The position numbers were made by a program, and so were the translations under genes. The notes under the pieces are model-generated. The model did not search any database and was not told the origin of the DNA. It saw only the letters and a program-made list of their open reading frames with translations. A DNA stretch of 64,000 nt from a virus: positions 1-64,000 of IMG/VR virus record IMGVR_UViG_3300044655_000639; one strand, 5' to 3'. Shown one piece after another: positions 106 through 47,223 of the stretch (positions are counted from its first letter, which is position 1; the number at the start of each line of letters is the position of its first letter).

Positions 106-3100
106 ATGAACCTTACTGAACTACGTAATCAAGCTGCTAAGGATATTCAAGCTGAAAGATCTAAGATAGGATCTTCCTCCTATATTAACAATACAAACAT
201 ACCTTATAATGAGCCCACACTTGCTGATAGAAGATACACTGGTCTTGCTCCATATGGTGAACCTACTAAAGCAGAGAAGCTCTTAGAGGCTAGAAATGAA
301 AAGATAAATAGACTACATGCTCTTACATCTACAAGCTCTGGTGCTCAGCTACAACAAGCTCTATCAGACATTGTAGACCAGCAAGTGTACACAGATGCTA
401 ATGGTAACAAGTACCAAGAGATGTATGGTAAAGATAGTAATGGAAACACTACTATCACTAAGGTACCTTACACAAAAGAAAATGCATATGGTAATGAAGA
501 TACAAGAAATCTCTATATAGATAATACGCTAGAAGGGAATATGAAGTTAGGGTTAGCTCGTAGTGATAAAGGATTCCTAGGACGGTACACTCCTACAGAG
601 GACAGTAAAGGTAAGAAGTATGGATGGACTCCAGGACCTAAAGGTGTAACACCTCAAGATGGTGCCTTAATGGATATCCAACTACCATATAATGTAGCTA
701 CTCAATTCGAGCATGGTGTGCACTCTAACAGAGGACAACTGGCTAATAGAGCTATAGGTCAAGGTCCTGTATCAAAACAAGATATAGCAAACTTCGGAAG
801 TGGTAAGACTGAGTATACAACACAGAATGCTCCTATGTGGAATCAATCTGCTAATACTAATCCAAGACTAGCTCCAAATACTCCTCTACCTAAAGAAATG
901 GATAAACTGCATAAGTATCAAAATGGGTTACAGATAACTGATTCTAACCTAATAGATGCACTACAGTACGGTGTTGGTAGAAAAGCTGCTGGAATAGCAG
1001 ATGCTATTGTGGATGCTGGAGGACAAGTAGCAGTAGCTGGATATGGTATGATGAATCCTGAGATGACTCAAGAGCAAGTACAAAAGAAGATGGCTAAGAC
1101 TATGGGTGGAAACTCTTTCACCAAAGACTACTACAATAAAAATGGGGACTTCATAGGACTAGACAAGTACAAGAAAGCTGCAGAGTATGGATATGATGAT
1201 GCTACTACTCAAGCTGCTATGGCAGACTTCGGTAAAGCCTTTGATAGTGGAAGCCCTGTGGAGATGGCTAAGTCTATAGCACGTAATCTAGATGCTGCTC
1301 CTGAATTTATAGCAGAGAGTGCTGGAGAATTCCTGACTGGACCTATGAGAGCTGCAGGTGTAATCCTTAATACATTCGACTATGCTAATAAGACTCTAGA
1401 GAGAAGACAAGAAGAAACTGGTAAAGCATACACTACCCTAGGAGATAAAGCTCTAGCAGGTCTAACAGGATGGGGACAAGCTATACTGAATAAAGCTGGT
1501 GTAGATGAGATGATCGGTAGAACAAAGATCGTATCTGGTGTAATGGATAAGCTGATCAAGTCTAATAAGCTAACAGATGGGATGGTATTGAATGCTGGCA
1601 AGAGACTAGCAGGGGCACTGACAGTAGCAACTGGTAAAGGACTATATGAAGGTACTGAAGAAGTAGCACAGCAGTTCTTAGACATCGTAGGAGCTAAGCT
1701 TGGGGATGAAAAAGCTAATGAAATCTTCTCTAGTAAGACAGGAAGAGAACTGTTCCAAGCATTCGGAGGAGGGTTTGGGAGTGGTGCTGGAATGCATGTA
1801 GTAACATCCCCTAAAGAAACCATAGGAGCTGTACTGTCTCCTGTAATGGCTACTACTAATAAAGGACTAACAAGCCTAGCAGAAATATCAGCTAATAGAA
1901 CAGTAGCAGATATAGATGCAAGAAAAGCTAAAGAGTACATAGCAAAACAAAACGAAGTGACAGCAGCTGAGAATGCTAAAATAGAAGAGATCAAAGCTCA
2001 AGAGGAAGCTGTCACTCCTATTACTTCTACTACTACAGCAGATACGCTAGATCTAACAAGAGAAGATATATCTACTGATGAGATAAATAGTGCTGCTACA
2101 GATCTGGTAACTAAAACCATACAAGCACAAGAAGCTGGTACTGTATATGAACCTACAGTTAATGAGCAAGCATTCCAAGCTGCATATGGTGAAGCTGTTA
2201 ATGCTAAGTTCACTGAAGTATATGCTGACATAGCTACAAATACAAATACTACTAATGCTGGGCTTACCAAAGCAACACCTAAACAAATGTCAGAAGGCTC
2301 TAGGAAACTAAATGATAATCCAGAACTTGCTGCACAAAATACTGTACTAGACAAACTTAGTACAAAAGTATCTGAGGCTAAAACAGAAGTTGAAAGAACT
2401 AATGCAGAAGTTGCTTATAATTACCACCTCAATAATGTAGTTACTCCACTAATTAACAGTATAAGAGGTTTTGATGATGCAGGTAATCTAATAAGCACTG
2501 TTGAAACTTCTAGCGCAACTACTCCTGCTAAAGGAACTCCGACTATGGCAGTTAGTGATAGAACAAGTGAAACTATTCAACAAGAAATAGAGGAGTTAGG
2601 TACAAGTAGGGATAACACCTATGTAGAGGACCTGCAAAGATATGTTGATAATGGAATGGGCATAGAAGAAGCTAAAAAGAAAGCCCACTCTAATTCGAGA
2701 GAAACATTCAATAAGATAAAAGCACTAGAAGAAGAACTCAAGACTGTTAAGGCTAATGAAGTATCTCAAGATAAAGCATTCAAAGAACAAGGAATATCTG
2801 ATGATGATCTGACAATCTACAAGAATGCTGGTATAGCAAATATCATATCTGTAGACGATAGAGCTAAAGGGTTAGGTATTGAAATAGATACTGATAAGGT
2901 ACAATTAAAAGAAGGAAGCACTAAGAAGAATAAGCTGTATGATCCTATGAAAGCTGATAATGCAACTCTAGATAGTATCATAGAAAGTGGTTTCAATAAA
3001 GATACGATAGATGCATTAGATGTAAGCAATAAAGGATCCACATTTCTGCAAAGACTATCTAAACACTTCACATTCGGCAAAGAAAAGCAAGTAGAACTGA

Positions 3101-6100
3101 CTAAGATAGCAAAAGACATCACAGCTAAACTATCAAATCCTACTGTTAAAGAAGCTATGACTAAAGTATCTGGTACTGATACATCTACAGCACAAGCACT
3201 AAGAGCTATCACAGTGGCTGTAAGTGCTGTACGATCAGCTACTACAGCAGAATTCGATATCACACATGGTGAAGGTGCTAAACATAATGGATATGCTCCT
3301 CAACTGGGGCTAGCAGAGCAAGTAGGTAAAGCATACTTAAACTCATTCGGAGCTAAGCTAAAGGGTAAGGACTCTGAGAGTATGGCTGCAAAGCATAAAG
3401 AGATAGGTATGAATGTACTGAAACTAGCAGAAGCTGCTGGATATGTAGAGAGTGCTTCTAATATGTCATTCCAGGTCCATAATAGAGTAACACCTAAAGG
3501 AGATAGAGTATCCACAAGTAGAGATGGTGGTAAATCAGATATTCCTGTAGGACAGAAGTCAGGTACATTCGCTAATACTGGGTATAGAGTAAAAGGTGAC
3601 AAAGACTCTTCTCGTATACCTGAGAATGCTGTAGGTTCTACTCTATCAAGTCTGGATAAGATATTCAATCCTATCAATGAAGAGATGGTTATGAGTACTC
3701 CATCTGATGTAGTAACATCTAAGAATCCTATCTCAAAAGAGCACCAGCAGATCATAAAAGATATGCAAGGTATGAAGTTCAGAATAAAAGCTCCATTCAT
3801 AGAATTACTCAAAAGTATAAAGGCTTCTCTAGGTGATAATATGGAGGCAAATCTATCTACGAATCCTGATATTAAAAAGCTATTAGGACTGGATAAGAAG
3901 TCTACGCTACTGACAAAGATGGGAGACTCTGGTAAGAGTATCCAAAGAAAAGGTAATCTACTAAAGCTACTGGAGAACCTGGATGAACTAGAAGCCATGA
4001 GTAAAGATGGATTCCACTTCACATTAGATACTGCTATCAATGAACGTGTACATATAATGCAAACACTTCTAGAGTTCCAAGGTGATAAGTTCATGTCAAG
4101 ACAGATCCTAACAGGAGGAGAATACACTACTGGTAACAAGTATGAGTATGATATGCTGATCAATGACATAAAAGACAATCTACCAAAGGGTATGGAATAT
4201 AATGATGATAGATTGACTGCTGCTGTAAAAGACTTCAATAAAGGAGTATTCAATGGTGATCAAGCTGTGTTCAACATAGTAGCTACTATGAAAGCACTAG
4301 GCTTCGACTCTCCATTCAAGATGCTGAATGTCCTGCAAGGTATGGCTGATGTACAGAAAGCTGATGGGTACAAAGTGACTACTGAGTATGTTCCTAGTGC
4401 AGATGCTACTGCAAGTGGTGTAATGAATACTCTAATGAATCTAATCGGTATGCCTTCAATACAGAACATGTTCAATAACTGGATAAGTGGAGGTAAGTTC
4501 GATCCATATACTGCACTACTAGACGCTGTAGATCTAGATAAAGAAGGTTCTTTCAGTGAGAGAGCATTAGCTACAAACAATGTATTCAATATACTATATA
4601 AAGGATCTAATCGTGACATTACAAAGTATCCTATCATCAAATGGATATATGGTCAATGGAAAGGCAATACTGAAAGAGAGATGGCTGATAGTATAGCAGT
4701 AGACCTGCTAAAAGCTGCTACTACAGGAAATCAAGATGCACTCAATGAAGTCAATAGAATCCTAGCTACAGCTAATAAAGAAGGGTATGAGGATATACTA
4801 GTAGGCGATATAGCTGTACGATCAGGAGATGCTCATCTAATAAAAGAAGCAGAAGAACTAGAAGCTACTATCAAAGATGGTAACTATGTAATATTTGACA
4901 CTGAGACTACAGATAGTACTCAAGGTAAAAATAACCATATCATACAAGCATCTATTCGCATCTTCAAGAATGGCGTAGAACAAGAGCCTGTAATGATACA
5001 TGTGCCACTAGAAGACGGTATCACCATAAGCCAAGGTGCATTCGAGATCCACAAGGTATCAGAAGAGATTCTTAAAAGTAAGATAAAGAATGGTGAAACA
5101 AGAAAAGGTCAGATAGCTAAGATACGTAGAGCAATAGGTTCTCTGCCTATAATTGCACATAGTGCCTCTTTCGATACTTCAGCTCTTCAATTAGGAGACG
5201 GTAAGATTATCACTAATAAAGTGCATGACACTATGGCACTAGCTAAGATTGCTCAATATGAGAAAGCAGCCCAAGATGGTGGAAAGACTACAGGTGGTGT
5301 TATAAATATAAAGGCTCTTTCTAAGACATATGGTATAGAGTATGATGATAAAGCCTCTCATGATGCTGCATATGATACAGCTCAAACAAAGCTACTAATA
5401 CAACCAATGCTAGATAGATTCAATAGCGTAAAGAGTAAGCTAAAAGTAGAAGGTGCCAATAATATCAGTAACCTAACAGAAGAAGATAAAAAAGTAATAA
5501 CAGACTACTACCAAACCAACATAAGTTCTCTATATGTTCCAGCACTAGATAAAGCATTCCCTGGTGTAAAAGAGTATAGTACTGCCATGAAGACACTGTA
5601 TGGTATCCTACAAACAAGTAAAGTATGGGATGGTAGAATCAAGAGTGCTATGGGTGTAATGCAAGGCACTGGTAATAAGATGAGTGTACGTAAGCTAAAG
5701 AATGTTGTACAGGATGTAGACGGTGATCTAACACAAATAGACAAAGAGATGGATAATGAAACATCATTCCTGGTAAACCTACAGCACTCAGTAGATGCTG
5801 CGCTACTACTACTATCTATGCAGAAAGTATTGAATAATCCTAATCTAACAGAAGTTAGTGTAATGACTGTACATGATGACTTCAGAGCACAACCTAAAGT
5901 ACTACGTGAGATAATGGCAGAGTATAATAAGCTAACAAGAGAAGTAGCAGTAAAGTATGACTTCCTCAGTGTAGCAATGGATGAAGTACAAGAAGTGATA
6001 GAGAAGCTGGAAGCAAAAGAGAACAAGACTCCAGAAGAGATAAAAACTCTATCAGTAGTAAAAGCTCAATATAACTCATTCAAGAATGATAGACAATTCC

Positions 6101-9100
6101 CTGGTACTGATGGAAAGCTAACAGTAAATGAAATGCTAGAAGCTAAGAAGAAATTCTTAGAAGGAGACATAGGTCTAAAAGTACTAGGAGATAAAACTGT
6201 AGATCTAAGTGGAGTAGATACTTCTGTATCTAAGCATAAAGCCAAAGAGAAAGCAGCACAGACTCTATCAGAGAAACTACATGAAGCACTGAACAATGGT
6301 GCAGATGTAGCAACAGCTCTACAATCTGTGGTAAATACTATAAAGGTGAGTGAAGAGTATGGTGCTCTAAAGCAGAAGGTTCTAGATGCTCTATCAGGTA
6401 AGACTATAACATTCAGTAGAAGTGATCAAGGCTTTACTGGAGGTAATGGTAAAGTAACAATACCTACTGGAAAGATAGGAGAAGAAAGATTCGTAGCTTC
6501 TGCACAGAGAGCTACAGCAATGACTCCTGAAGGGCTAATAGAGACATTAGCACATGAGATAGATCATGCCTATAAGCTAAGCTATATAGAGAGTGATACA
6601 GGGCTTAAATCACCTGAGGTGAAGTATCTAAATAAAGTGGTAGAAAAGCTACGGAGAGAGCGAGATAAAGGTAATCTAACAACACTATCATCAGAAACCC
6701 AAGCACGTATAAAGTATATAGTAGAACATAAAGATGCTGGGAGAGCTGTGAGTGAGCTGGTATCAGTACTAGAGAATGAAATCTCTGTATCCAATGAGAT
6801 TAAAGGAATAGTACAAGCACCTACACTTCTAGAAGTGCTATCTAACCTCATCAAGAGAGTGAAGGAATGGGTTAAAGCAATGACTCAAGATGAGAGAAAA
6901 TCTCGTATAAGTGAAGCTATGAGTAATGATGATACTACTATGATGGCACTAGAAGCATCTCTAATAGAAGTAAGTATTAACTCTAAAGCATATGGTGTAG
7001 GAGATGGTAAAGCTATGGCTAGAGCTTCAGCTAAGTCAGATACTGATACGGTAAATGATCCATACTTCAATGAGAATCTAAATCCGTTAGTAGCAGCTAA
7101 TAAAGCTATGGCTAAGTCTAATAGATTCCTATCAGACTGGATGATCATATGGGGTGATCTAATAGCTCAAGAAGTAGGACCTATAGCTGGTAAGTTCCAT
7201 AATAAGATGAAAGAGAAATATCCTGTGTATGTTCAGACAATGAGTATGATACGATCAGGATTCTATGAGAGTGAGTGGATGCAAAAGATGCATACAAATC
7301 TAGGAGTAGATGGATCAAGATCTGAAGTAATCAATAAGCTGCAGACTCTACGTCATGAGATAGGGCAACAGACAGGAGCACTAGCTAGAAAGATGGCAGA
7401 GCTTAAAAGAAGACAAGAAGAAGTCTATACAAAGAAAGAGCGTAATACATTATATGCTATGTTCAAGACTGGTATAGGGCATCTATCAACAGAAGAGCTA
7501 AAGACAGTACATGATGGTATCTTCAATGGAAGTATGACATATAAAGAAGCTATAGCTATAGTATCTGATGGTATGACTGCTGATCAAATAAGACAGTTAG
7601 ATAATGTTGCTAACTACGTAAATACTGGTAATACTACTGAGACAGCAAGAGAAGTGAATACACTATTCATAGAAGGTGTATCAGAAGAGAAAGGTGGAGC
7701 ATACGTAGCATTGAAAGCATTATCTCAAATACCTGGATCACTAGAACTGCTAAAGGGCATGGATAAAGATATGCTGAAAGAGATGCTGTCTATTGCAAAT
7801 GCTAACAAACATCTAAGTGAAGTAATCAATAGAGCAAAGACAGACTACACAGGTAAGAAGATCACTAATGAAGCTGGTTACTATAGTGACTATGATGTAA
7901 CGTATGCTATGGACATCTTCAATGAGAATCATGAGTATGTACTGATCACTGCAGAAGATCTAAAAAGAAGCATCTACTCAGAAACCAATGGATGGTTTGT
8001 AGTAAAGGGTGTAGAGAATGGAGTAGGTCTGGTAGGAAGAAAAAGTTATTCTCCTACTAATAGACCAGGTGTTGGACTAGAAGTAACAAGATACCAGAAT
8101 GGTGTATACCTAGATCCAGAACAATCAGCTAAGATGGATAACATAATAGGAAAGTTAAAATCTAAAGAAGCAGTATCAGCATATCTAGATGCAAACAGTA
8201 TCACAATGGATAATGGTAAATACAGATTTGTAATAGATGAGAAGACTAAAAGAGAGAAACTTGATCTAGTAGAGGATTCAGCTGAGTCTCTATATAGAAC
8301 ATATATCAGAAACTTCGAACTAGTACATGCTCAAAGTATTAAGGATATAGTGCTCAATGAAGGAATTCAACATATCAATACAGAAAAGGATATGCTAATC
8401 CTAAATACTATTCTAGAAACTAACAATAAAGAGAGAGGTCTACTAAGTAGAACTAAAGTACTACCATTCCTAAAAGTAAACTATGATATGAAGATGACAT
8501 ATGATGAAATGGCTAAGAAATACCCATACATTGCAATGTATTTTAGAACTCCTAATAATCTATCAACATATCAAGAGTTCAACCAGAACATAACATTTGT
8601 AAAGAAAGGTGAAGGTGATGTGCTGTTAGGATACAAGCCAGGAACATTATTCGCAGATAGTGATAATAGATCCCTAGCAAAATGGGAATCTATGTATAAG
8701 AAACTAATAGTACTATCAAAGCAAAAGATGATTGTAACAAACCCTAAGAAGCTTGCTGTAGATGCTGCTGCTAACATGGGGATCCTATCTATGTATGATA
8801 TGGACCCAATGTCTATATTCAGAGGAATGAAAGATGGATTCACAGAGTACCATAAGTTAACAGCTAAAAGAAACACTCTAGTAGATGTGGAACTTAAAGC
8901 AAGAATAGCCTTCAATAGTAAAGATACTGCAAAGTATGAAGTACTGATGAAAAGACGTGATAAGATAAATGCTCAGCTAAAAGAGATGAAGTTCTATGAT
9001 GCATGGAAATCAGGTTTCATACAGTCATACAGTACAGATCTAGTACTTAAAGAGTTTGATACTATCAGTGGTATCCAAAGAGATATAGATATATTCATAG

Positions 9101-9792
9101 ATAAATATACTATTGATGAGAAAGGTGATCCAAATGCATTGTATAAAGCTATAAAGTGGTGGCAAGAAGCTGGAGGACCAAAAGCTAATGTAGAAACATT
9201 CTTCAGTGCTGTTAGTAAAGCAAGTGCATTAAAAGGGACAATGTTAAGTACTGAGTTAAAAGAGCTGAGTGAGAGATTAAAGAATAAGAAGAATGAAGAG
9301 AGTGTGGCAAGGTATGTCAGCGAGTTCCTAGGAAGTCCCTCATCTGAAGTGGTAAGCTATGGTAGTGCTACTATGGTGTTGATAGATGCCCTATCTAAGT
9401 ATCTTCTAGCAAATCACCTAATGACTCAAGAGAATCCTAGAAAGGGTAAAGTAGGTGCAAGACCTATGTATACTAAAGAAGAAGCATACGCTATAGCTCA
9501 AGAGACATTCATAGACTATAGAGATAATCTTCCAAAAGAAGTACAGACACTAAGTGACTATGGTGTATTACTGTTCCCAGCATACTGGATGCGAGTACAG
9601 AAGATACTAGCGGGACTAGCATTGTACCACCCTATAAGCTCGCTAGGAGGATTTGCAATAGAAGCTTCACTAGGTATTGAGAGCATGAGTGCAATGAACT
9701 CTAACCTGTTTACAAAGGGGGCAAATGAAGGGCTTATAAACCTAAACCCAGCTGAGGTGATAGATGCAGGTTCTGTAATGGTATTGCTCTAA
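106..9792 (+). CDS. Virion-encapsidated RNA polymerase (N4 gp50-like), with inserted DEDDh exonuclease and HExxH motif
   Basis: 3228 aa with no Cys seen. T7-superfamily motif A DATASG (4402), motif B RDITK..IYG (4612-4653), motif C VHDDF (5872). Last late gene, converging on the middle genes as in N4. Confidence 0.93.
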   Translation: MNLTELRNQAAKDIQAERSKIGSSSYINNTNIPYNEPTLADRRYTGLAPYGEPTKAEKLLEARNEKINRLHALTSTSSGAQLQQALSDIVDQQVYTDANGNKYQEMYGKDSNGNTTITKVPYTKENAYGNEDTRNLYIDNTLEGNMKLGLARSDKGFLGRYTPTEDSKGKKYGWTPGPKGVTPQDGALMDIQLPYNVATQFEHGVHSNRGQLANRAIGQGPVSKQDIANFGSGKTEYTTQNAPMWNQSANTNPRLAPNTPLPKEMDKLHKYQNGLQITDSNLIDALQYGVGRKAAGIADAIVDAGGQVAVAGYGMMNPEMTQEQVQKKMAKTMGGNSFTKDYYNKNGDFIGLDKYKKAAEYGYDDATTQAAMADFGKAFDSGSPVEMAKSIARNLDAAPEFIAESAGEFLTGPMRAAGVILNTFDYANKTLERRQEETGKAYTTLGDKALAGLTGWGQAILNKAGVDEMIGRTKIVSGVMDKLIKSNKLTDGMVLNAGKRLAGALTVATGKGLYEGTEEVAQQFLDIVGAKLGDEKANEIFSSKTGRELFQAFGGGFGSGAGMHVVTSPKETIGAVLSPVMATTNKGLTSLAEISANRTVADIDARKAKEYIAKQNEVTAAENAKIEEIKAQEEAVTPITSTTTADTLDLTREDISTDEINSAATDLVTKTIQAQEAGTVYEPTVNEQAFQAAYGEAVNAKFTEVYADIATNTNTTNAGLTKATPKQMSEGSRKLNDNPELAAQNTVLDKLSTKVSEAKTEVERTNAEVAYNYHLNNVVTPLINSIRGFDDAGNLISTVETSSATTPAKGTPTMAVSDRTSETIQQEIEELGTSRDNTYVEDLQRYVDNGMGIEEAKKKAHSNSRETFNKIKALEEELKTVKANEVSQDKAFKEQGISDDDLTIYKNAGIANIISVDDRAKGLGIEIDTDKVQLKEGSTKKNKLYDPMKADNATLDSIIESGFNKDTIDALDVSNKGSTFLQRLSKHFTFGKEKQVELTKIAKDITAKLSNPTVKEAMTKVSGTDTSTAQALRAITVAVSAVRSATTAEFDITHGEGAKHNGYAPQLGLAEQVGKAYLNSFGAKLKGKDSESMAAKHKEIGMNVLKLAEAAGYVESASNMSFQVHNRVTPKGDRVSTSRDGGKSDIPVGQKSGTFANTGYRVKGDKDSSRIPENAVGSTLSSLDKIFNPINEEMVMSTPSDVVTSKNPISKEHQQIIKDMQGMKFRIKAPFIELLKSIKASLGDNMEANLSTNPDIKKLLGLDKKSTLLTKMGDSGKSIQRKGNLLKLLENLDELEAMSKDGFHFTLDTAINERVHIMQTLLEFQGDKFMSRQILTGGEYTTGNKYEYDMLINDIKDNLPKGMEYNDDRLTAAVKDFNKGVFNGDQAVFNIVATMKALGFDSPFKMLNVLQGMADVQKADGYKVTTEYVPSADATASGVMNTLMNLIGMPSIQNMFNNWISGGKFDPYTALLDAVDLDKEGSFSERALATNNVFNILYKGSNRDITKYPIIKWIYGQWKGNTEREMADSIAVDLLKAATTGNQDALNEVNRILATANKEGYEDILVGDIAVRSGDAHLIKEAEELEATIKDGNYVIFDTETTDSTQGKNNHIIQASIRIFKNGVEQEPVMIHVPLEDGITISQGAFEIHKVSEEILKSKIKNGETRKGQIAKIRRAIGSLPIIAHSASFDTSALQLGDGKIITNKVHDTMALAKIAQYEKAAQDGGKTTGGVINIKALSKTYGIEYDDKASHDAAYDTAQTKLLIQPMLDRFNSVKSKLKVEGANNISNLTEEDKKVITDYYQTNISSLYVPALDKAFPGVKEYSTAMKTLYGILQTSKVWDGRIKSAMGVMQGTGNKMSVRKLKNVVQDVDGDLTQIDKEMDNETSFLVNLQHSVDAALLLLSMQKVLNNPNLTEVSVMTVHDDFRAQPKVLREIMAEYNKLTREVAVKYDFLSVAMDEVQEVIEKLEAKENKTPEEIKTLSVVKAQYNSFKNDRQFPGTDGKLTVNEMLEAKKKFLEGDIGLKVLGDKTVDLSGVDTSVSKHKAKEKAAQTLSEKLHEALNNGADVATALQSVVNTIKVSEEYGALKQKVLDALSGKTITFSRSDQGFTGGNGKVTIPTGKIGEERFVASAQRATAMTPEGLIETLAHEIDHAYKLSYIESDTGLKSPEVKYLNKVVEKLRRERDKGNLTTLSSETQARIKYIVEHKDAGRAVSELVSVLENEISVSNEIKGIVQAPTLLEVLSNLIKRVKEWVKAMTQDERKSRISEAMSNDDTTMMALEASLIEVSINSKAYGVGDGKAMARASAKSDTDTVNDPYFNENLNPLVAANKAMAKSNRFLSDWMIIWGDLIAQEVGPIAGKFHNKMKEKYPVYVQTMSMIRSGFYESEWMQKMHTNLGVDGSRSEVINKLQTLRHEIGQQTGALARKMAELKRRQEEVYTKKERNTLYAMFKTGIGHLSTEELKTVHDGIFNGSMTYKEAIAIVSDGMTADQIRQLDNVANYVNTGNTTETAREVNTLFIEGVSEEKGGAYVALKALSQIPGSLELLKGMDKDMLKEMLSIANANKHLSEVINRAKTDYTGKKITNEAGYYSDYDVTYAMDIFNENHEYVLITAEDLKRSIYSETNGWFVVKGVENGVGLVGRKSYSPTNRPGVGLEVTRYQNGVYLDPEQSAKMDNIIGKLKSKEAVSAYLDANSITMDNGKYRFVIDEKTKREKLDLVEDSAESLYRTYIRNFELVHAQSIKDIVLNEGIQHINTEKDMLILNTILETNNKERGLLSRTKVLPFLKVNYDMKMTYDEMAKKYPYIAMYFRTPNNLSTYQEFNQNITFVKKGEGDVLLGYKPGTLFADSDNRSLAKWESMYKKLIVLSKQKMIVTNPKKLAVDAAANMGILSMYDMDPMSIFRGMKDGFTEYHKLTAKRNTLVDVELKARIAFNSKDTAKYEVLMKRRDKINAQLKEMKFYDAWKSGFIQSYSTDLVLKEFDTISGIQRDIDIFIDKYTIDEKGDPNALYKAIKWWQEAGGPKANVETFFSAVSKASALKGTMLSTELKELSERLKNKKNEESVARYVSEFLGSPSSEVVSYGSATMVLIDALSKYLLANHLMTQENPRKGKVGARPMYTKEEAYAIAQETFIDYRDNLPKEVQTLSDYGVLLFPAYWMRVQKILAGLALYHPISSLGGFAIEASLGIESMSAMNSNLFTKGANEGLINLNPAEVIDAGSVMVLL

Positions 9793-30113: not shown

Positions 30114-30665
30114 CTATTCGTTAAATAGAAACTTCATATCCTCAGGTATACATTCATACATTGCTTCAGCTACTTCTCTGATTTGGAAGTGTGCTGAAGA
30201 TGCTCTACGAAGCTCTAGGAAGTTCTTTAAGCTTCTAGCGTTAAACATTACTGTCCAGTTGTATTGGAAGGCTTGTGGTAGCATTAGAGATACAATCTCG
30301 TTGGATACTCCATCTTCAACAAAGCGTCTAATTTCATCTTGTAGATATGATAATACATTGTCTACTTCACTATTCCCAGTAGACTCAAATACAATATCAG
30401 TCTTATTCAATGTGTACCTACTTGACTGGCAAGCATAAGAAGCCATACGATGACGAGTCATTTCAAGAAGCACTTTTGTACTAGCTGATATGTCAAATGT
30501 GAATGTAGCAAACTCCAATACACTAGAGTGCTTATGTTTTAATGCTACCTTAGTGATACGATTATCACGTTTAGTAGTATCAGTATAATCTCCTTTAGCA
30601 TAGCAAAGTCCAATACTATGGTCTATGCCTTCTAGCCCTTGATGTGCAATTAATTTAACTTTCAT
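30114..30665 (-). CDS. thyX: FAD-dependent thymidylate synthase
   Basis: HSSVLE, RHRMASYACQSSRY, NARSLKNFLELR, QIR; start revised to MKVKL. Confidence 0.93.
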   Translation of the reverse strand: MKVKLIAHQGLEGIDHSIGLCYAKGDYTDTTKRDNRITKVALKHKHSSVLEFATFTFDISASTKVLLEMTRHRMASYACQSSRYTLNKTDIVFESTGNSEVDNVLSYLQDEIRRFVEDGVSNEIVSLMLPQAFQYNWTVMFNARSLKNFLELRRASSAHFQIREVAEAMYECIPEDMKFLFNE

Positions 30666-30708
30666 CTTATTCCCTTTTTTAATATTTGTATAGCTATTGC
30701 TACGCATA

Positions 30709-31337: not shown

Positions 31338-31669
31338 TATAATTCCTTTATAAAACTAGGTAGTTCACCTATTAACGGCTCACAGTTGCTAGAGTTTAAC
31401 CAATCTTCATCAATATGTTGTTGAGTTGCCTCTATAATGGTTGGAATTTTGTAGTCTAAAACTTGTGACCAAACCCATTCACCAACTTTTGGTTTCCAAA
31501 GCTCACAGTGTTGTATATTAATATCATAGTTTCTAGTGTTGTCTATGGTGTCTCTAGTATACCAACCTTTTACACGAACAGTAGTAGTGCACCCTTTGTG
31601 TAGAGAGTCTATTTTTCCTATACCGAATACATTACTTCTAACCCAATCGCCTACTTTAAGTTCCATCAT
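31337..31669 (-). CDS. Hypothetical protein
   Basis: Coupled ORF; repeated KVG.WV motif. Confidence 0.6.
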   Translation of the reverse strand: MMELKVGDWVRSNVFGIGKIDSLHKGCTTTVRVKGWYTRDTIDNTRNYDINIQHCELWKPKVGEWVWSQVLDYKIPTIIEATQQHIDEDWLNSSNCEPLIGELPSFIKEL

Positions 31670-32249
31670 AAACTCCTATATATTTTCATAACATCTTTAG
31701 CTTGTTTGTGCCCTAATTTACTATACCCTTTGTACCTCTTAATAGCTAAGAAATATGTACCATAGATATCAAGATAGTCTCTAAGAAGCTTAGCAGCATT
31801 CATGATATTACCTGAGTCATGGTAAGGATTGTATGGCAAGATAGAGCCACAAGTCATGTTGATACCACATAGACCTATTACGTTTGGTATGGCGTGTTTA
31901 CGGTGCACAAATGAGCTTTCAGATGCTATCAGTGCACCTAGTACTTTGGGTCTAAATTATATGTCTCTGCTGCTTTGATGGTATCTTTAGCTTGTTGTGG
32001 AGATGCTCCTAAAGTCTGAAGGGCTTCTGCTGTGGTTCTGTATGACTCAAGTTCTTTGTTGAGAGCATCTATCTCTCTGAAAGCCGCTGAGGCTTCTACT
32101 CTAGCTTGGTTGTCCATACTCAAGGACTGTTCTAAGACTCGTTCATGAGTGGATATGAGCATGCAGGATTGATTGCAGTATACGAATGGTATTGCAATGA
32201 TAGCAATAAGAATAGGAAGAATAATATCTTCATCAATGCTGATAGTCAT
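31666..32249 (-). CDS. Membrane-anchored SLT lytic transglycosylase, encoded across a -1 frameshift at 31944-31950
   Basis: Frame 0 ends ..YNLDPKY*; the -1 frame continues VLGALIASESSF...IGLCGIN...NIMNAAKLL...YG...AIKRY, giving a complete SLT motif set. Confidence 0.75.
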
Positions 32250-32506
32250 TGTGCCAACTTTGCTTCTGCTTGCTGTAGAGTAAGACCATCTTCCATCAAT
32301 GACTGTACCATATAGCAATGTCCTATGATGATGTCAGAATCATCTTTCTCTTGCTGTAGCTGTTTGTTTTCCTCAAGCAATAGTCTGGCTTGAGCATTAG
32401 TAAGTACACTACTATACCACGCTATGATGGCCATAATGAAGAGACCTGATGACAACCATCTGTAGAAGGTACGAGAAGCTTTTAAGTGTTCATATGTTTC
32501 TCTCAT
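32246..32506 (-). CDS. Membrane protein with coiled coil
   Basis: One TM segment; coupled ORF. Confidence 0.6.
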   Translation of the reverse strand: MRETYEHLKASRTFYRWLSSGLFIMAIIAWYSSVLTNAQARLLLEENKQLQQEKDDSDIIIGHCYMVQSLMEDGLTLQQAEAKLAQ

Positions 32507-34789: not shown

Positions 34790-36604
34790 TTAGTCTTCAT
34801 AAGACAACGGCATACCTGCCATAATGTCATCTCTACTAAGACTACCTTTAGTGATACGAAACTGTAGTGATGGATCAATCTGAGTAAGAATATCATGAAG
34901 TAAATTCATGTCATTAACATCAGCCATAACAGCCTTAACAAGACTGAATAACTTCTCTTCATTACCTTCTTCAATACCATATGAATCATGAATCATACTG
35001 ATAGCAAAGTCAGCTCTACGGCATACTTCTCTAGCTATGAACGACTCTACAGAACGTACAATATTAGGAGCTAAACTTCTGTTATACTTAGTATTATTAG
35101 GAACTTTAGCTTCAATAGATACACTATGAGTCTTACCCATTTGAAGATCAGCATAGTATCCTTTATGTGTAACAGTCTCCATTACATCATATGATACAAC
35201 AAAGCCATCAGGCATTGTCCACTGATAGTGTGATTGGTTCTCATTGTTGAATCTATAGATAAGATTCATAAGCTTAAGTGCTGCAGGAGCAAGCTCTTCT
35301 AATGCAGTCATAATGAACTTATATAGACCAGCTTTAAGCTCTTCTGGAACTAAGTCTCTGATAGTATGTGTACCAGCATAACGTACATCATCCTTGATAG
35401 TATCAGTATTATCCAATAGCTGTTTCTCCATACCACCATAGAATGCAATCATTACTAAGTGTTTAACTGTATCCTTAACAAAGATACTACTACCAGTATG
35501 CTCATTAAGTCTTCTAGCTAATTCAATACGTAAGTCTTCCAACTCAGTATCTGAGAGTCCTACTCTACTACCTGTCAATGGATCACTACCAAGTAATGCA
35601 TATACTTGTAGATTATTATTTCTACAGTCATACTTCTTAATACTGTTGCCATTGATTGTAAGCATACGCTTCTGAAATGAATCACCTTGTGGATTAAGGT
35701 ATGGACTACATGAATGCATACGTCCTGAACTATTCTCAAATGCATATGGCACATGGAATGTCTCATCTTGAAATCTATGAATATCTTCTACTAACTTGTT
35801 CCACTCTTTAGCCATGAATACACCATCTTTATCAAACCATTTGTCTTGTAATTTATACTCTTCTAATAAAGGAACTAGTTCTTCATTAGGTATAAGCTTA
35901 AATGGTACTGACTGTTGGTGATTCAATGCAGATAATGCTGCTTCACCTTGTGCTGTAAGACCACTAAGCATAGTCTTACCTGATAAATACGTTCCTCCTT
36001 TATTCTCTGCAGTATGTGCTACTAATCTATAAGCTGCTCCTCCACTACGTACTGTAGAAGCTTTAAGATAGAGTCCTTCTTCTTGTAAGAATGCTTGTAG
36101 TTTAATACTAGGCTCAATGATATTATGTGTATGAGCTTTGTCTGTCTTAATGATCTTATTTTGTAGAAAACCAGTATCTTTAAGGAACTGAATAATGTTA
36201 GCTCCAAGTGTAGCTTTAGTGCTGTGACTAGCACGTACTCTACCTGTACTTAATGTTATTACTTTGTTACAAAGCTGTTGACCTAGCTTGTAACCTGCAA
36301 TCCTGTGTTCGAGGTAACTATGGCTGATTACAAGATCCTCAATGAGGATTGTAAACACTTTAGCCCACTGAATATTGTGTTGAGACAACAGCTCATGATG
36401 GTACTCTTTATGTTCTATCTCACTGTTATTAATAGCTATTAAGTACTCACTCCAATTACTGCCTAATGTCTCTGCATTAAGCTTAGAAACACTGTCTTTA
36501 ATTGCTAGTCTAAGACCAGCTAAGCTATAACTAGCTTCGTATGACTGCTGCTTAGCAGCAACTGCTTGGATTTGTGCAAATGTAAGTGTTGATAATGTTT
36601 TCAT
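34790..36604 (-). CDS. Single-chain T7-like RNA polymerase (N4 RNAPII equivalent, unsplit)
   Basis: SSGRMH..LNPQG, motif A YDCRNNNLQ, motif B KDTVK..FYGG, LAPNIVRS, motif C IHDSY; start revised to MKTLST (GAGGAG RBS). Confidence 0.88.
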   Translation of the reverse strand: MKTLSTLTFAQIQAVAAKQQSYEASYSLAGLRLAIKDSVSKLNAETLGSNWSEYLIAINNSEIEHKEYHHELLSQHNIQWAKVFTILIEDLVISHSYLEHRIAGYKLGQQLCNKVITLSTGRVRASHSTKATLGANIIQFLKDTGFLQNKIIKTDKAHTHNIIEPSIKLQAFLQEEGLYLKASTVRSGGAAYRLVAHTAENKGGTYLSGKTMLSGLTAQGEAALSALNHQQSVPFKLIPNEELVPLLEEYKLQDKWFDKDGVFMAKEWNKLVEDIHRFQDETFHVPYAFENSSGRMHSCSPYLNPQGDSFQKRMLTINGNSIKKYDCRNNNLQVYALLGSDPLTGSRVGLSDTELEDLRIELARRLNEHTGSSIFVKDTVKHLVMIAFYGGMEKQLLDNTDTIKDDVRYAGTHTIRDLVPEELKAGLYKFIMTALEELAPAALKLMNLIYRFNNENQSHYQWTMPDGFVVSYDVMETVTHKGYYADLQMGKTHSVSIEAKVPNNTKYNRSLAPNIVRSVESFIAREVCRRADFAISMIHDSYGIEEGNEEKLFSLVKAVMADVNDMNLLHDILTQIDPSLQFRITKGSLSRDDIMAGMPLSYED

Positions 36605-36622
36605 AATATTCTCCTCAGAATA

Positions 36623-36640
36623 ATACACTCTATGGTGTAT
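36623..36640 (-). promoter_or_regulatory. TCTATG-loop hairpin, copy 2
   Basis: ATACAC-TCTATG-GTGTAT. Confidence 0.6.
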
Positions 36641-46770: not shown

Positions 46771-47223
46771 ATGATGCAAGGTTTTCATCCAAAGTTTACG
46801 TGGGAAGAGCTTATACGTACAAATCATAGTAGCTTACAAGCTCAAAATATCAAAGAGGCACTGAAGTATCAAAACGCTGGTAAGCGGTTATCAAAGCTGT
46901 TGGGAAGCATCAGAGAAGCGTATGGATTTCCTATCTCTATTACAAGTGGGTTTCGTTGTCCAGCTCTCAATAGGGCTGTTGGAAGTAAGGCTAAGACCTC
47001 ATCACATATGAGGTTTGAAGCTGCTGATTGTATTCCCGTTGGTAAAGATTTCAAGCACTTCTTTAATTGGCTCAATGAACATAGTATCGAGTTCCCTGAT
47101 TTACGCAAAGCAATCATCGAACATCATAAGGGGTTGGTGCATATTGAGGTGAAGATGGATGCTGAGGAGCCTCAAGTATTTTACACTACGAATGACAATG
47201 TGACGTTTAAGGCGGTGGCATGA
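46771..47223 (+). CDS. Endolysin, peptidase M15A family
   Basis: ITSGFRC..LNRAVG...SSH...AAD...VHI. Confidence 0.88.
   Translation: MMQGFHPKFTWEELIRTNHSSLQAQNIKEALKYQNAGKRLSKLLGSIREAYGFPISITSGFRCPALNRAVGSKAKTSSHMRFEAADCIPVGKDFKHFFNWLNEHSIEFPDLRKAIIEHHKGLVHIEVKMDAEEPQVFYTTNDNVTFKAVA

Follow-up and report, generated by a model that had tools for sequence, protein, structure and literature searches.

What is made from a gene that stops inside its own catalytic domain? The question is raised by a locus on the minus strand (31666-32249) of a 64,000-nt stretch of viral DNA, referred to here as the window, which is the first 64 kb of the 74,282-bp IMG/VR virus record IMGVR_UViG_3300044655_000639, a metagenome-assembled contig. 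An open reading frame (ORF) of 103 aa, called ORF0, ends at this locus just before the catalytic helix of a putative lytic transglycosylase, and the remainder of the enzyme is encoded in the -1 frame. Very likely, the two parts are joined by a programmed -1 ribosomal frameshift, such that the gene, which belongs to the early/middle replication module of an uncultured freshwater phage, would give rise both to an inactive membrane anchor and to an active enzyme of 194 aa.

The case begins with the anatomy of the site. ORF0 occupies 31938 to 32249, from the ATG at 32249 to a TAG stop, and ends ...AAETYNLDPKY. Its product has a transmembrane helix at the N terminus, followed by a long helix and then by helix 1 of an SLT domain. 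Close to its end, the codons GAC CCA AAG present the slippery heptamer C_CCA_AAG (31944 to 31950) in the X_XXY_YYZ phase, and one codon past the heptamer lies the zero-frame stop TAG (31938 to 31940) that ends the short product. The -1 frame is closed upstream by a TAA (31957 to 31959). Both frames are open together over 16 nt only (31956-31941), which confines any shift to that stretch. CCCAAAG occurs a single time in all 64 kb. Heptamers of the X_XXY_YYZ type, counted in any phase, number 119 per strand, and by our own arithmetic the chance of finding one in phase within the 16-nt doubly open stretch is roughly 1%. A 5-nt spacer (TACTA) separates the heptamer from a predicted 3' stimulatory hairpin (31902 to 31938, minus strand), which has a 7-bp, G+C-rich stem (GGTGCAC, 31938-31932, and GTGCACC, 31908-31902) and further inner pairs. 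The centroid structure has a folding energy of -17.0 kcal/mol and the minimum free energy structure one of -17.3 kcal/mol (z = -2.7); only 1 of 200 shuffled sequences folds as well. An Rfam search returned nothing beyond a chance-level microRNA match.

The -1 frame segment (CCC AAA GTA ... TGA, 31666 to 31950, minus strand) is open from 31956 to the TGA at 31668-31666. Its translation after the TAA at 31959-31957 reads FRPKVLGALIASESSF... (FRPKVLGALIASESSFVHRKHAIPNVIGLCGIN...RYKGYS... up to the TGA) and contains the catalytic helix LGALIASESSF with its glutamate, the motifs GLCGIN and RYKGYS, and the remainder of the SLT/GH23 domain. The predicted trans-frame product is thus 102 + 92 = 194 aa long (92 aa after Lys102), with the junction peptide ...LDPK/VLGALIASESSF.... 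A phased heptamer, a 5-nt spacer, a stem, a 103-aa zero-frame protein, and a 194-aa shifted product were all part of an earlier reading of this DNA, made from the letters alone and called the original prediction below, and each was found again at the same positions. Reading the TAG as a sense codon was considered and rejected, as the zero frame meets a TGA or TAA two to three codons later anyway.

How would such a cassette operate? Ribosomes initiating at the ATG would translate the transmembrane helix, the long helix, and the first SLT helix, and would then pause at C_CCA_AAG against the hairpin that starts 5 nt downstream. Those that stay in frame would read one more codon, stop at the TAG, and release a 103-aa anchor that carries no catalytic residues. 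In those that slip, tRNA-Pro would move from CCA to CCC and tRNA-Lys from AAG to AAA, one base back, and translation would go on in the -1 frame to give the 194-aa protein with the catalytic glutamate and a complete SLT fold. Sharma et al. 2014 (PMC4066793) place C_CCA_AAG, G_GGA_AAG, and A_AAA_AAG at the top of the -1 motifs of E. coli by efficiency, and in that species they measured 54% shifting for C_CCA_AAG combined with the IS3 pseudoknot.

Is the predicted product a lytic transglycosylase? An exhaustive search brought together 53 relatives, many of which are single ORFs of 175 to 210 aa. The Pfam SLT family (PF01464) matches 14 of 29 family members (best 1.6e-7), and the family profile matches the SLT domain of the phage tape measure protein PDB 9b45 (2e-8) with the E-S motif aligned. 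The catalytic glutamate, E13 of the window's -1 segment (P0002), is invariant in 29 of 29 sequences and aligns to the ES of the 9b45 domain. When compared with PHROG, the same segment gives a weak match to phrog_13449, "transglycosylase" (E 0.004). Two further features of the family are a histidine 8 residues past the catalytic glutamate (H21 of P0002), which is also invariant in 29 of 29 members, and a lysine in the Y-K-G motif, where the SLT "AYNAG" usually has an asparagine. Relatives were not found everywhere: blastn and tblastn against about 50,700 GenBank phage records gave no homologue, nor did a profile search of prokaryote genome contigs, and single-protein scans of viral contigs with P0001, P0002, P0014, and P0022 yielded no relatives. 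Two loci from the profile scan, L014 and L015, are unrelated continuous SLT proteins and were set aside.

The structural evidence comes from the closest single ORF, P0003 (65% identical), which reads ...AAELYNLDPKMLGALIASESSF... across the site without a break. Its AlphaFold2 (AF2) model (pLDDT 92) has a transmembrane helix (residues 5-27) and then a second helix, 40 residues long (33-72), ahead of a compact domain (78-188) that matches the Ralstonia GH23 chitinase, LtgA, Slt70, MltC/E, and goose lysozymes (prob 1.00, TMt up to 0.66). On P0003, the site of the shift is equivalent to P95-K96 and separates the first SLT helix (residues 78-90) from the catalytic one (95-106, with Glu105). Because the break lies inside one compact fold, between helix 1 and the catalytic helix, the model predicts that neither ORF by itself can yield a folded enzyme. 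The trans-frame protein, by the same modeling, is a predicted small, membrane-anchored SLT/GH23 family-1 lytic transglycosylase, and its N-terminal signal-anchor should leave the SLT domain facing the periplasm. The Pfam matches, the 9b45 profile match, and the P0003 model thus all bear out what had been read from the sequence, namely, an SLT domain with a break just before the catalytic helix.

Could the two ORFs instead be two separate genes, the 103-aa membrane protein being complete in itself and the downstream ORF that starts at GTG 31908 (80 aa) encoding a noncatalytic protein? Public gene callers treat them in this way, splitting such genes into a 99- to 103-aa ORF and a 58- to 92-aa ORF, both annotated as "hypothetical protein." The position of the start codons speaks against this. 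GTG 31908 is the first ATG, GTG, or TTG in the window's -1 frame and lies 4 codons past the glutamate, in agreement with the earlier claim that the downstream ORF alone lacks this residue. In the other frame-broken loci, described below, the first start of the -1 ORF is 28 to 43 codons past it, and no ATG, GTG, or TTG precedes the catalytic glutamate in the -1 frame of any frame-broken locus. Every start codon thus comes too late to include the glutamate and the catalytic helix, which are nevertheless invariant and kept by purifying selection. Added to this are the break within one compact fold and the existence of homologues as single ORFs, and a pair of independent genes is accordingly very improbable.

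A frame break in short homopolymer runs (CCC and AAA) of a metagenome-assembled contig also calls to mind a more mundane origin, that is, a sequencing or assembly indel, or else a frame put right in the RNA by transcriptional slippage or by editing. However, the exact 103-aa ORF0 is recorded for 11 contigs, with NCBI, JGI, and Logan as sources, and seven clusters of close ORF0 variants (81-90% identical, 99 or 103 aa) have the same stop position. The site was also checked in contigs of four other runs (X4, X9, X13, and X15). In X4, an independent DNA run from lake water, one contig of 1,656 nt covers the whole stretch with 0 gaps; two metatranscriptome libraries have contigs that are identical to the window over 31727-32500 (X9) and 31630-31961 (X13); and a contig of a further DNA run (X15) also extends across the site. 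No insertion or deletion was seen anywhere in the contigs of these four runs, with the provisos that contigs may hide rare variants, that an RNA library may contain DNA, and that contig depth and coverage holes are uninformative. The extra A that would make the gene one continuous ORF, a possibility raised along with the original prediction, is thus absent from independent assemblies, those from RNA libraries included. An assembly artefact and a dominant correction at the RNA level are excluded. The same break is seen in diverged loci of other metagenomes, and slippage by RNA polymerase needs runs much longer than 3 nt. Taken as a whole, an explanation by sequencing error or by events in the RNA has almost no probability left.

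Does the break recur elsewhere? The comparison that settles the matter took in DNA of 11 homologous loci, of which 5 are frame-broken (L002, L003, L007, L008, and L009) and 6 are continuous (L004, L005, L006, and L010-L012). The five frame-broken loci represent four lineages and are 51-65% identical to the window at the amino acid level. All five carry the same -1 break. L002 (58% identical) reads AAC CCA AAG CAT TAG, L007 and L008 (65%) read GAC CCA AAG CAT TAG, and L009 (57%) reads GAC CCA AAG CAT TTG GGG CTC TAA, each with C_CCA_AAG; L003 (51%) reads GTG GGA AAG TAG and has G_GGA_AAG. The zero-frame stop in these loci follows 0, 3, or 12 nt past the heptamer. In L007, L008, and L009, a TGA shuts the -1 frame directly before the CCC, so a shift is possible there on the heptamer alone. 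A good ribosome-binding site stands ahead of every ORF0. Where the family is uninterrupted, the protein agrees with the predicted trans-frame sequence at the site: P0003 reads ...YNLDPKMLGALIASESSF... and L006/P0079 reads ...LDPLLLAALIASES....

The hairpins also divide the two groups. A hairpin is predicted 5 to 7 nt past the heptamer in six of six frame-broken loci, the window included (z -1.6 to -3.4), with arms that differ from locus to locus (GGTGCAC/GTGCACC, GGTAGCTT/AAGTTACC, ACTCGGAA/TTCCGAGT, GCTCTCTG/CGGAGAGC, and GGGCTCT/AGAGTCC). The six continuous loci have neither a slippery heptamer at the site nor a hairpin (z -1.4 to +0.8). The separation of broken from continuous loci by hairpin z is complete (Mann-Whitney p = 0.008, independent lineages). 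Frame break, heptamer, and stem, whose conservation in homologs had been suggested as a check, are therefore retained in diverged relatives. Selection on the protein can be followed as well. Between L007 and L008, the -1 ORF has 18 synonymous and 3 non-synonymous changes (dN/dS 0.04), and in three other frame-broken pairs with unsaturated synonymous sites its dN/dS is 0.12-0.43; the remaining pairs are saturated. Judged by these substitutions, purifying selection has acted on the -1 ORF where frame-broken loci are compared with one another.

A Shine-Dalgarno (SD)-like GGAGG or AGAGG is present 13 nt 5' of the heptamer in L002 (about 2484-2493), L007, L008, and L009, and a weaker AGAGA is present in the window. 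As a specific stimulator, this upstream element was dropped from consideration; it coincides with conserved Ala-Ala-Glu codons and is present in the continuous L004.

How do broken and continuous forms relate to each other? They are interleaved in a tree of the catalytic domain, in which well-supported branches force at least 3 changes. The window's closest relatives with DNA include the continuous L006/P0079, whose metagenome also yielded the frame-broken L007 and L008. One base lost from CCA AAA GNN would leave C_CCA_AAG and put the remainder out of frame by -1; ribosomes slipping by -1 would then make the ancestral protein again. Since a single indel makes or undoes the break, its state can toggle. 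On this phylogenetic evidence, the frameshift is an optional, evolutionarily labile overlay on a gene family in which many homologues are plain continuous ORFs.

The ease of that change also feeds a different interpretation, in which an accessory gene that the phage can do without lost all or nearly all of its function, in several lineages, through a tolerated or "savior" one-base deletion in the A run, any slippage being an adventitious leak and the slippery context a by-product of the places where deletions arise. The strongest argument in its favor is that CCA AAA GNN would turn into precisely the observed heptamer when an A is lost, and the interleaving on the tree, with a state that toggles easily, fits it too, as do close ORF0 variants that lack the CCA codon. 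Several observations speak against it. The break has persisted for long, and the -1 ORF is open and under strong purifying selection in broken lineages that are mutually saturated at synonymous sites. Correctly spaced hairpins accompany every broken frame and are missing from every continuous locus, L003 has a different top-efficiency heptamer at the same site, and every ORF0 has kept its good ribosome-binding site. A tolerated indel is, for these reasons, an unlikely account of the locus, and a programmed -1 frameshift is preferred.

Several points nonetheless weigh against a programmed frameshift. That ribosomes slip here, and how efficiently, we infer from the signals described above. The shiftiness of A_AAG depends on a host with a single tRNA-Lys(UUU). 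As an ancestral CCA AAA G minus one base gives the configuration unaided, the heptamer alone carries less weight as evidence than it may seem to. The hairpins are mutually non-homologous, with different 3' arms and loop sizes, and thus do not lend themselves to a classical covariation test. Contigs leave room for minority variants in which the frame is restored. The -1 segment of the window, taken alone, falls below the Pfam SLT threshold, as would be expected of a domain that is split. Finally, four 99-aa ORF0 variants (P0057, P0059, P0060, and P0061) end ...LDAKY or ...LDVKY. The codon before the lysine is not CCA in these variants; therefore, the full heptamer is not strictly kept, and the Lys codon alone is conserved at the slip site. 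Z_ZZN tetramers form a second class of -1 motif (PMC4066793).

The start points of short proteins in the family hint at a wider distribution of the break. The representatives P0014, P0022, P0025, and P0076 have as their first residue a called Met in place of the Leu that opens LGAL, and P0004 begins three codons further, at the Leu before IASES. Going by their sequences, these five probably mark more frame-broken lineages; P0008, P0013, and P0027 are likewise taken to be frame-broken, provisionally and from protein start points alone. One of these proteins, P0076, is 92 aa long, begins MGALISSESSF..., is 64% identical, and is recorded at NCBI as a hypothetical protein on a 176-kb contig of a Sulfuricurvum sp. 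metagenome-assembled genome. From its sequence, it looks like the downstream-only ORF of a frame-broken gene. Its filing under Sulfuricurvum is the only hint of a host, and an unverified one.

Where in the genome does the gene reside? The layout of the window resembles that of an N4-like (Schitoviridae-type) podophage, and the 74,282 bp of the record fit the size of such genomes (about 70-75 kb). The identity of its largest gene is presumed: a giant ORF of 3,228 aa (106-9792) is presumed to be an N4-type virion RNA polymerase. A 612-aa ORF (34790-36628) encodes a T7-type RNA polymerase with a match to Pfam RNA_pol, and the minus strand carries ThyX (30114-30707), a UvrD-like helicase, and a family-A DNA polymerase (PolA). 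The M15 peptidase endolysin of the lysis cassette lies on the plus strand (46771-47223). Records containing L002-L005 have ThyX and a 138-aa neighbor gene in common with the window; a 2,828-aa part of the giant ORF (106-9792) found no match in them. Near-identical sequence was found in lake-water metagenomes (17 studies) and in freshwater metatranscriptome libraries. The frameshift gene itself is placed on the minus strand between the T7-type RNA polymerase gene and the ThyX/helicase/PolA genes. It was originally proposed to be expressed outside the lysis cassette, and its position agrees: it belongs to the early/middle replication module and is about 15 kb from the M15 endolysin, and it is therefore not the lysis enzyme. 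A lysis-cassette endolysin adjoins holin and spanin genes and is expressed late, and neither holds for this gene, judging by its location.

The immediate surroundings have features of their own. The ATG of ORF0 overlaps the stop of an upstream 86-aa, transmembrane helix-containing ORF (32246-32506) in an ATGA, and several neighboring small ORFs overlap by 1 to 4 nt (for example, at 30707/30709 and 31337). These overlaps suggest a translationally coupled string of small early/middle genes. At the other end, contigs of runs X9, X13, and X15 match the window to 31671 and then go over to unrelated sequence (loose end CTCCTTTGAATGATTTAGCACA). Some co-occurring strains thus part from the window right where the SLT gene has its 3' end, in what looks like a mosaic junction, beyond which they may have another gene or a diverged allele.

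Why would a phage make such an enzyme by frameshifting? Both the purpose of the shift and the biological role of the gene we infer. The frameshift would limit and fix how much is made, early in infection, of a periplasmic enzyme that cuts the wall and could be lethal. The catalytically dead anchor, which would be in excess and has the same transmembrane helix and long helix, may co-assemble with the enzyme. The original prediction spoke of a fixed ratio of products, with the short one as merely an inactive anchor, and both notions are best treated as conjecture. A bolder proposal is that of a tunable dosage gate, in which mostly dead anchor restrains or positions rare active enzyme, the gate being switched by single-base indels and its hairpins arising de novo each time. 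This proposal is tentative and, in our judgment, rather doubtful. Were it true, phages would have a muralytic system under recoding control, different in kind from the timing by holin and endolysin, and the family would be a natural series of gains and losses of programmed ribosomal frameshifting (PRF).

How new is this arrangement? Programmed -1 frameshifting in phages is textbook knowledge for tail chaperones and for some capsid genes. A lead to a 1994 lactococcal lysin aside, full-text literature searches gave no report of PRF that completes a peptidoglycan lytic transglycosylase, and a large review of recoding makes no mention of a transglycosylase, lysozyme, or endolysin (PMC5009743). As a slip cassette the site is canonical, and for this class of gene no other report of PRF was found. 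Annotation splits these genes into two "hypothetical proteins," and the enzyme has therefore been missed in uncultured freshwater phages. Its recognition is of interest for three reasons. (i) One family contains both frameshift-dependent and continuous versions, with hairpins in the former only, making it a clean natural system for the origin of PRF signals. (ii) The family is suited to asking what a fixed anchor-to-enzyme ratio is for. (iii) The gene points to an early-expressed, membrane-tethered wall-remodeling function in N4-like phages that is separate from lysis.

Which known systems does the gene most resemble? Among muralytic genes of phages, the lactococcal lysin of Shearman et al. 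1994 is said to be encoded by two overlapping genes, and it is taken here as a lead only. It differs in being the endolysin of a Gram-positive phage, located in the lysis cassette, rather than a membrane-anchored SLT protein. A passage of the PRFect paper cites this lysin as a muralytic frameshift precedent in phages (PMC10885494). As for the enzyme, the predicted product has the goose-lysozyme-like GH23 fold in common with MltE, MltC, Slt70, LtgA, EtgA, T7 gp16, and the SLT domains of tape measure proteins, and it displays the E-S motif on the second helix and the GLxxI and Y-K/N-G motifs of family-1 lytic transglycosylases. It departs from them in its domain of about 110 aa, in its anchor made of an N-terminal transmembrane helix and a 40-residue helix, in the invariant histidine, and in being encoded among the replication genes of a podophage-like genome.

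As for the shift, E. coli dnaX, which produces tau and gamma, has a heptamer ending in A_AAG (A_AAA_AAG), a stem-loop about 5 to 6 nt downstream, and a nearby stop, all as here. It also has an upstream SD-like element, as do L002, L007, L008, and L009, in which the role of the element is unproven. In dnaX, shifted ribosomes stop early and make the shorter product, whereas here they would make the longer and, by prediction, active one. The lambda-like tail chaperones G and GT are a conserved phage case of -1 PRF on X_XXA_AAG, with a heptamer, G_GGA_AAG, identical to that of L003, and they too supply a short and a C-terminally extended protein in a fixed ratio. A strong 3' structure is not known to be required for the G/GT shift. 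The product there is a virion assembly chaperone, here an early/middle-module enzyme; moreover, the G/GT shift is almost universal in long-tailed phages, whereas many members of the present family are continuous ORFs.

The closest functional analogy is found in the OrfA/OrfAB arrangement of the IS3 family (IS911 and IS3). The differences are plain enough. The enzyme is a transposase there and a predicted membrane-anchored peptidoglycan lytic transglycosylase here, and the shift takes place there between two ORFs with a long overlap and here inside the catalytic domain. A regulatory role of the short product of the SLT gene would be conjecture. What the two systems have in common is an X_XXA_AAG-type heptamer for slipping into the -1 frame, a 3' structure, a short, noncatalytic zero-frame product, an N-terminal part shared by both proteins, and a catalytic domain that appears in the trans-frame fusion only.

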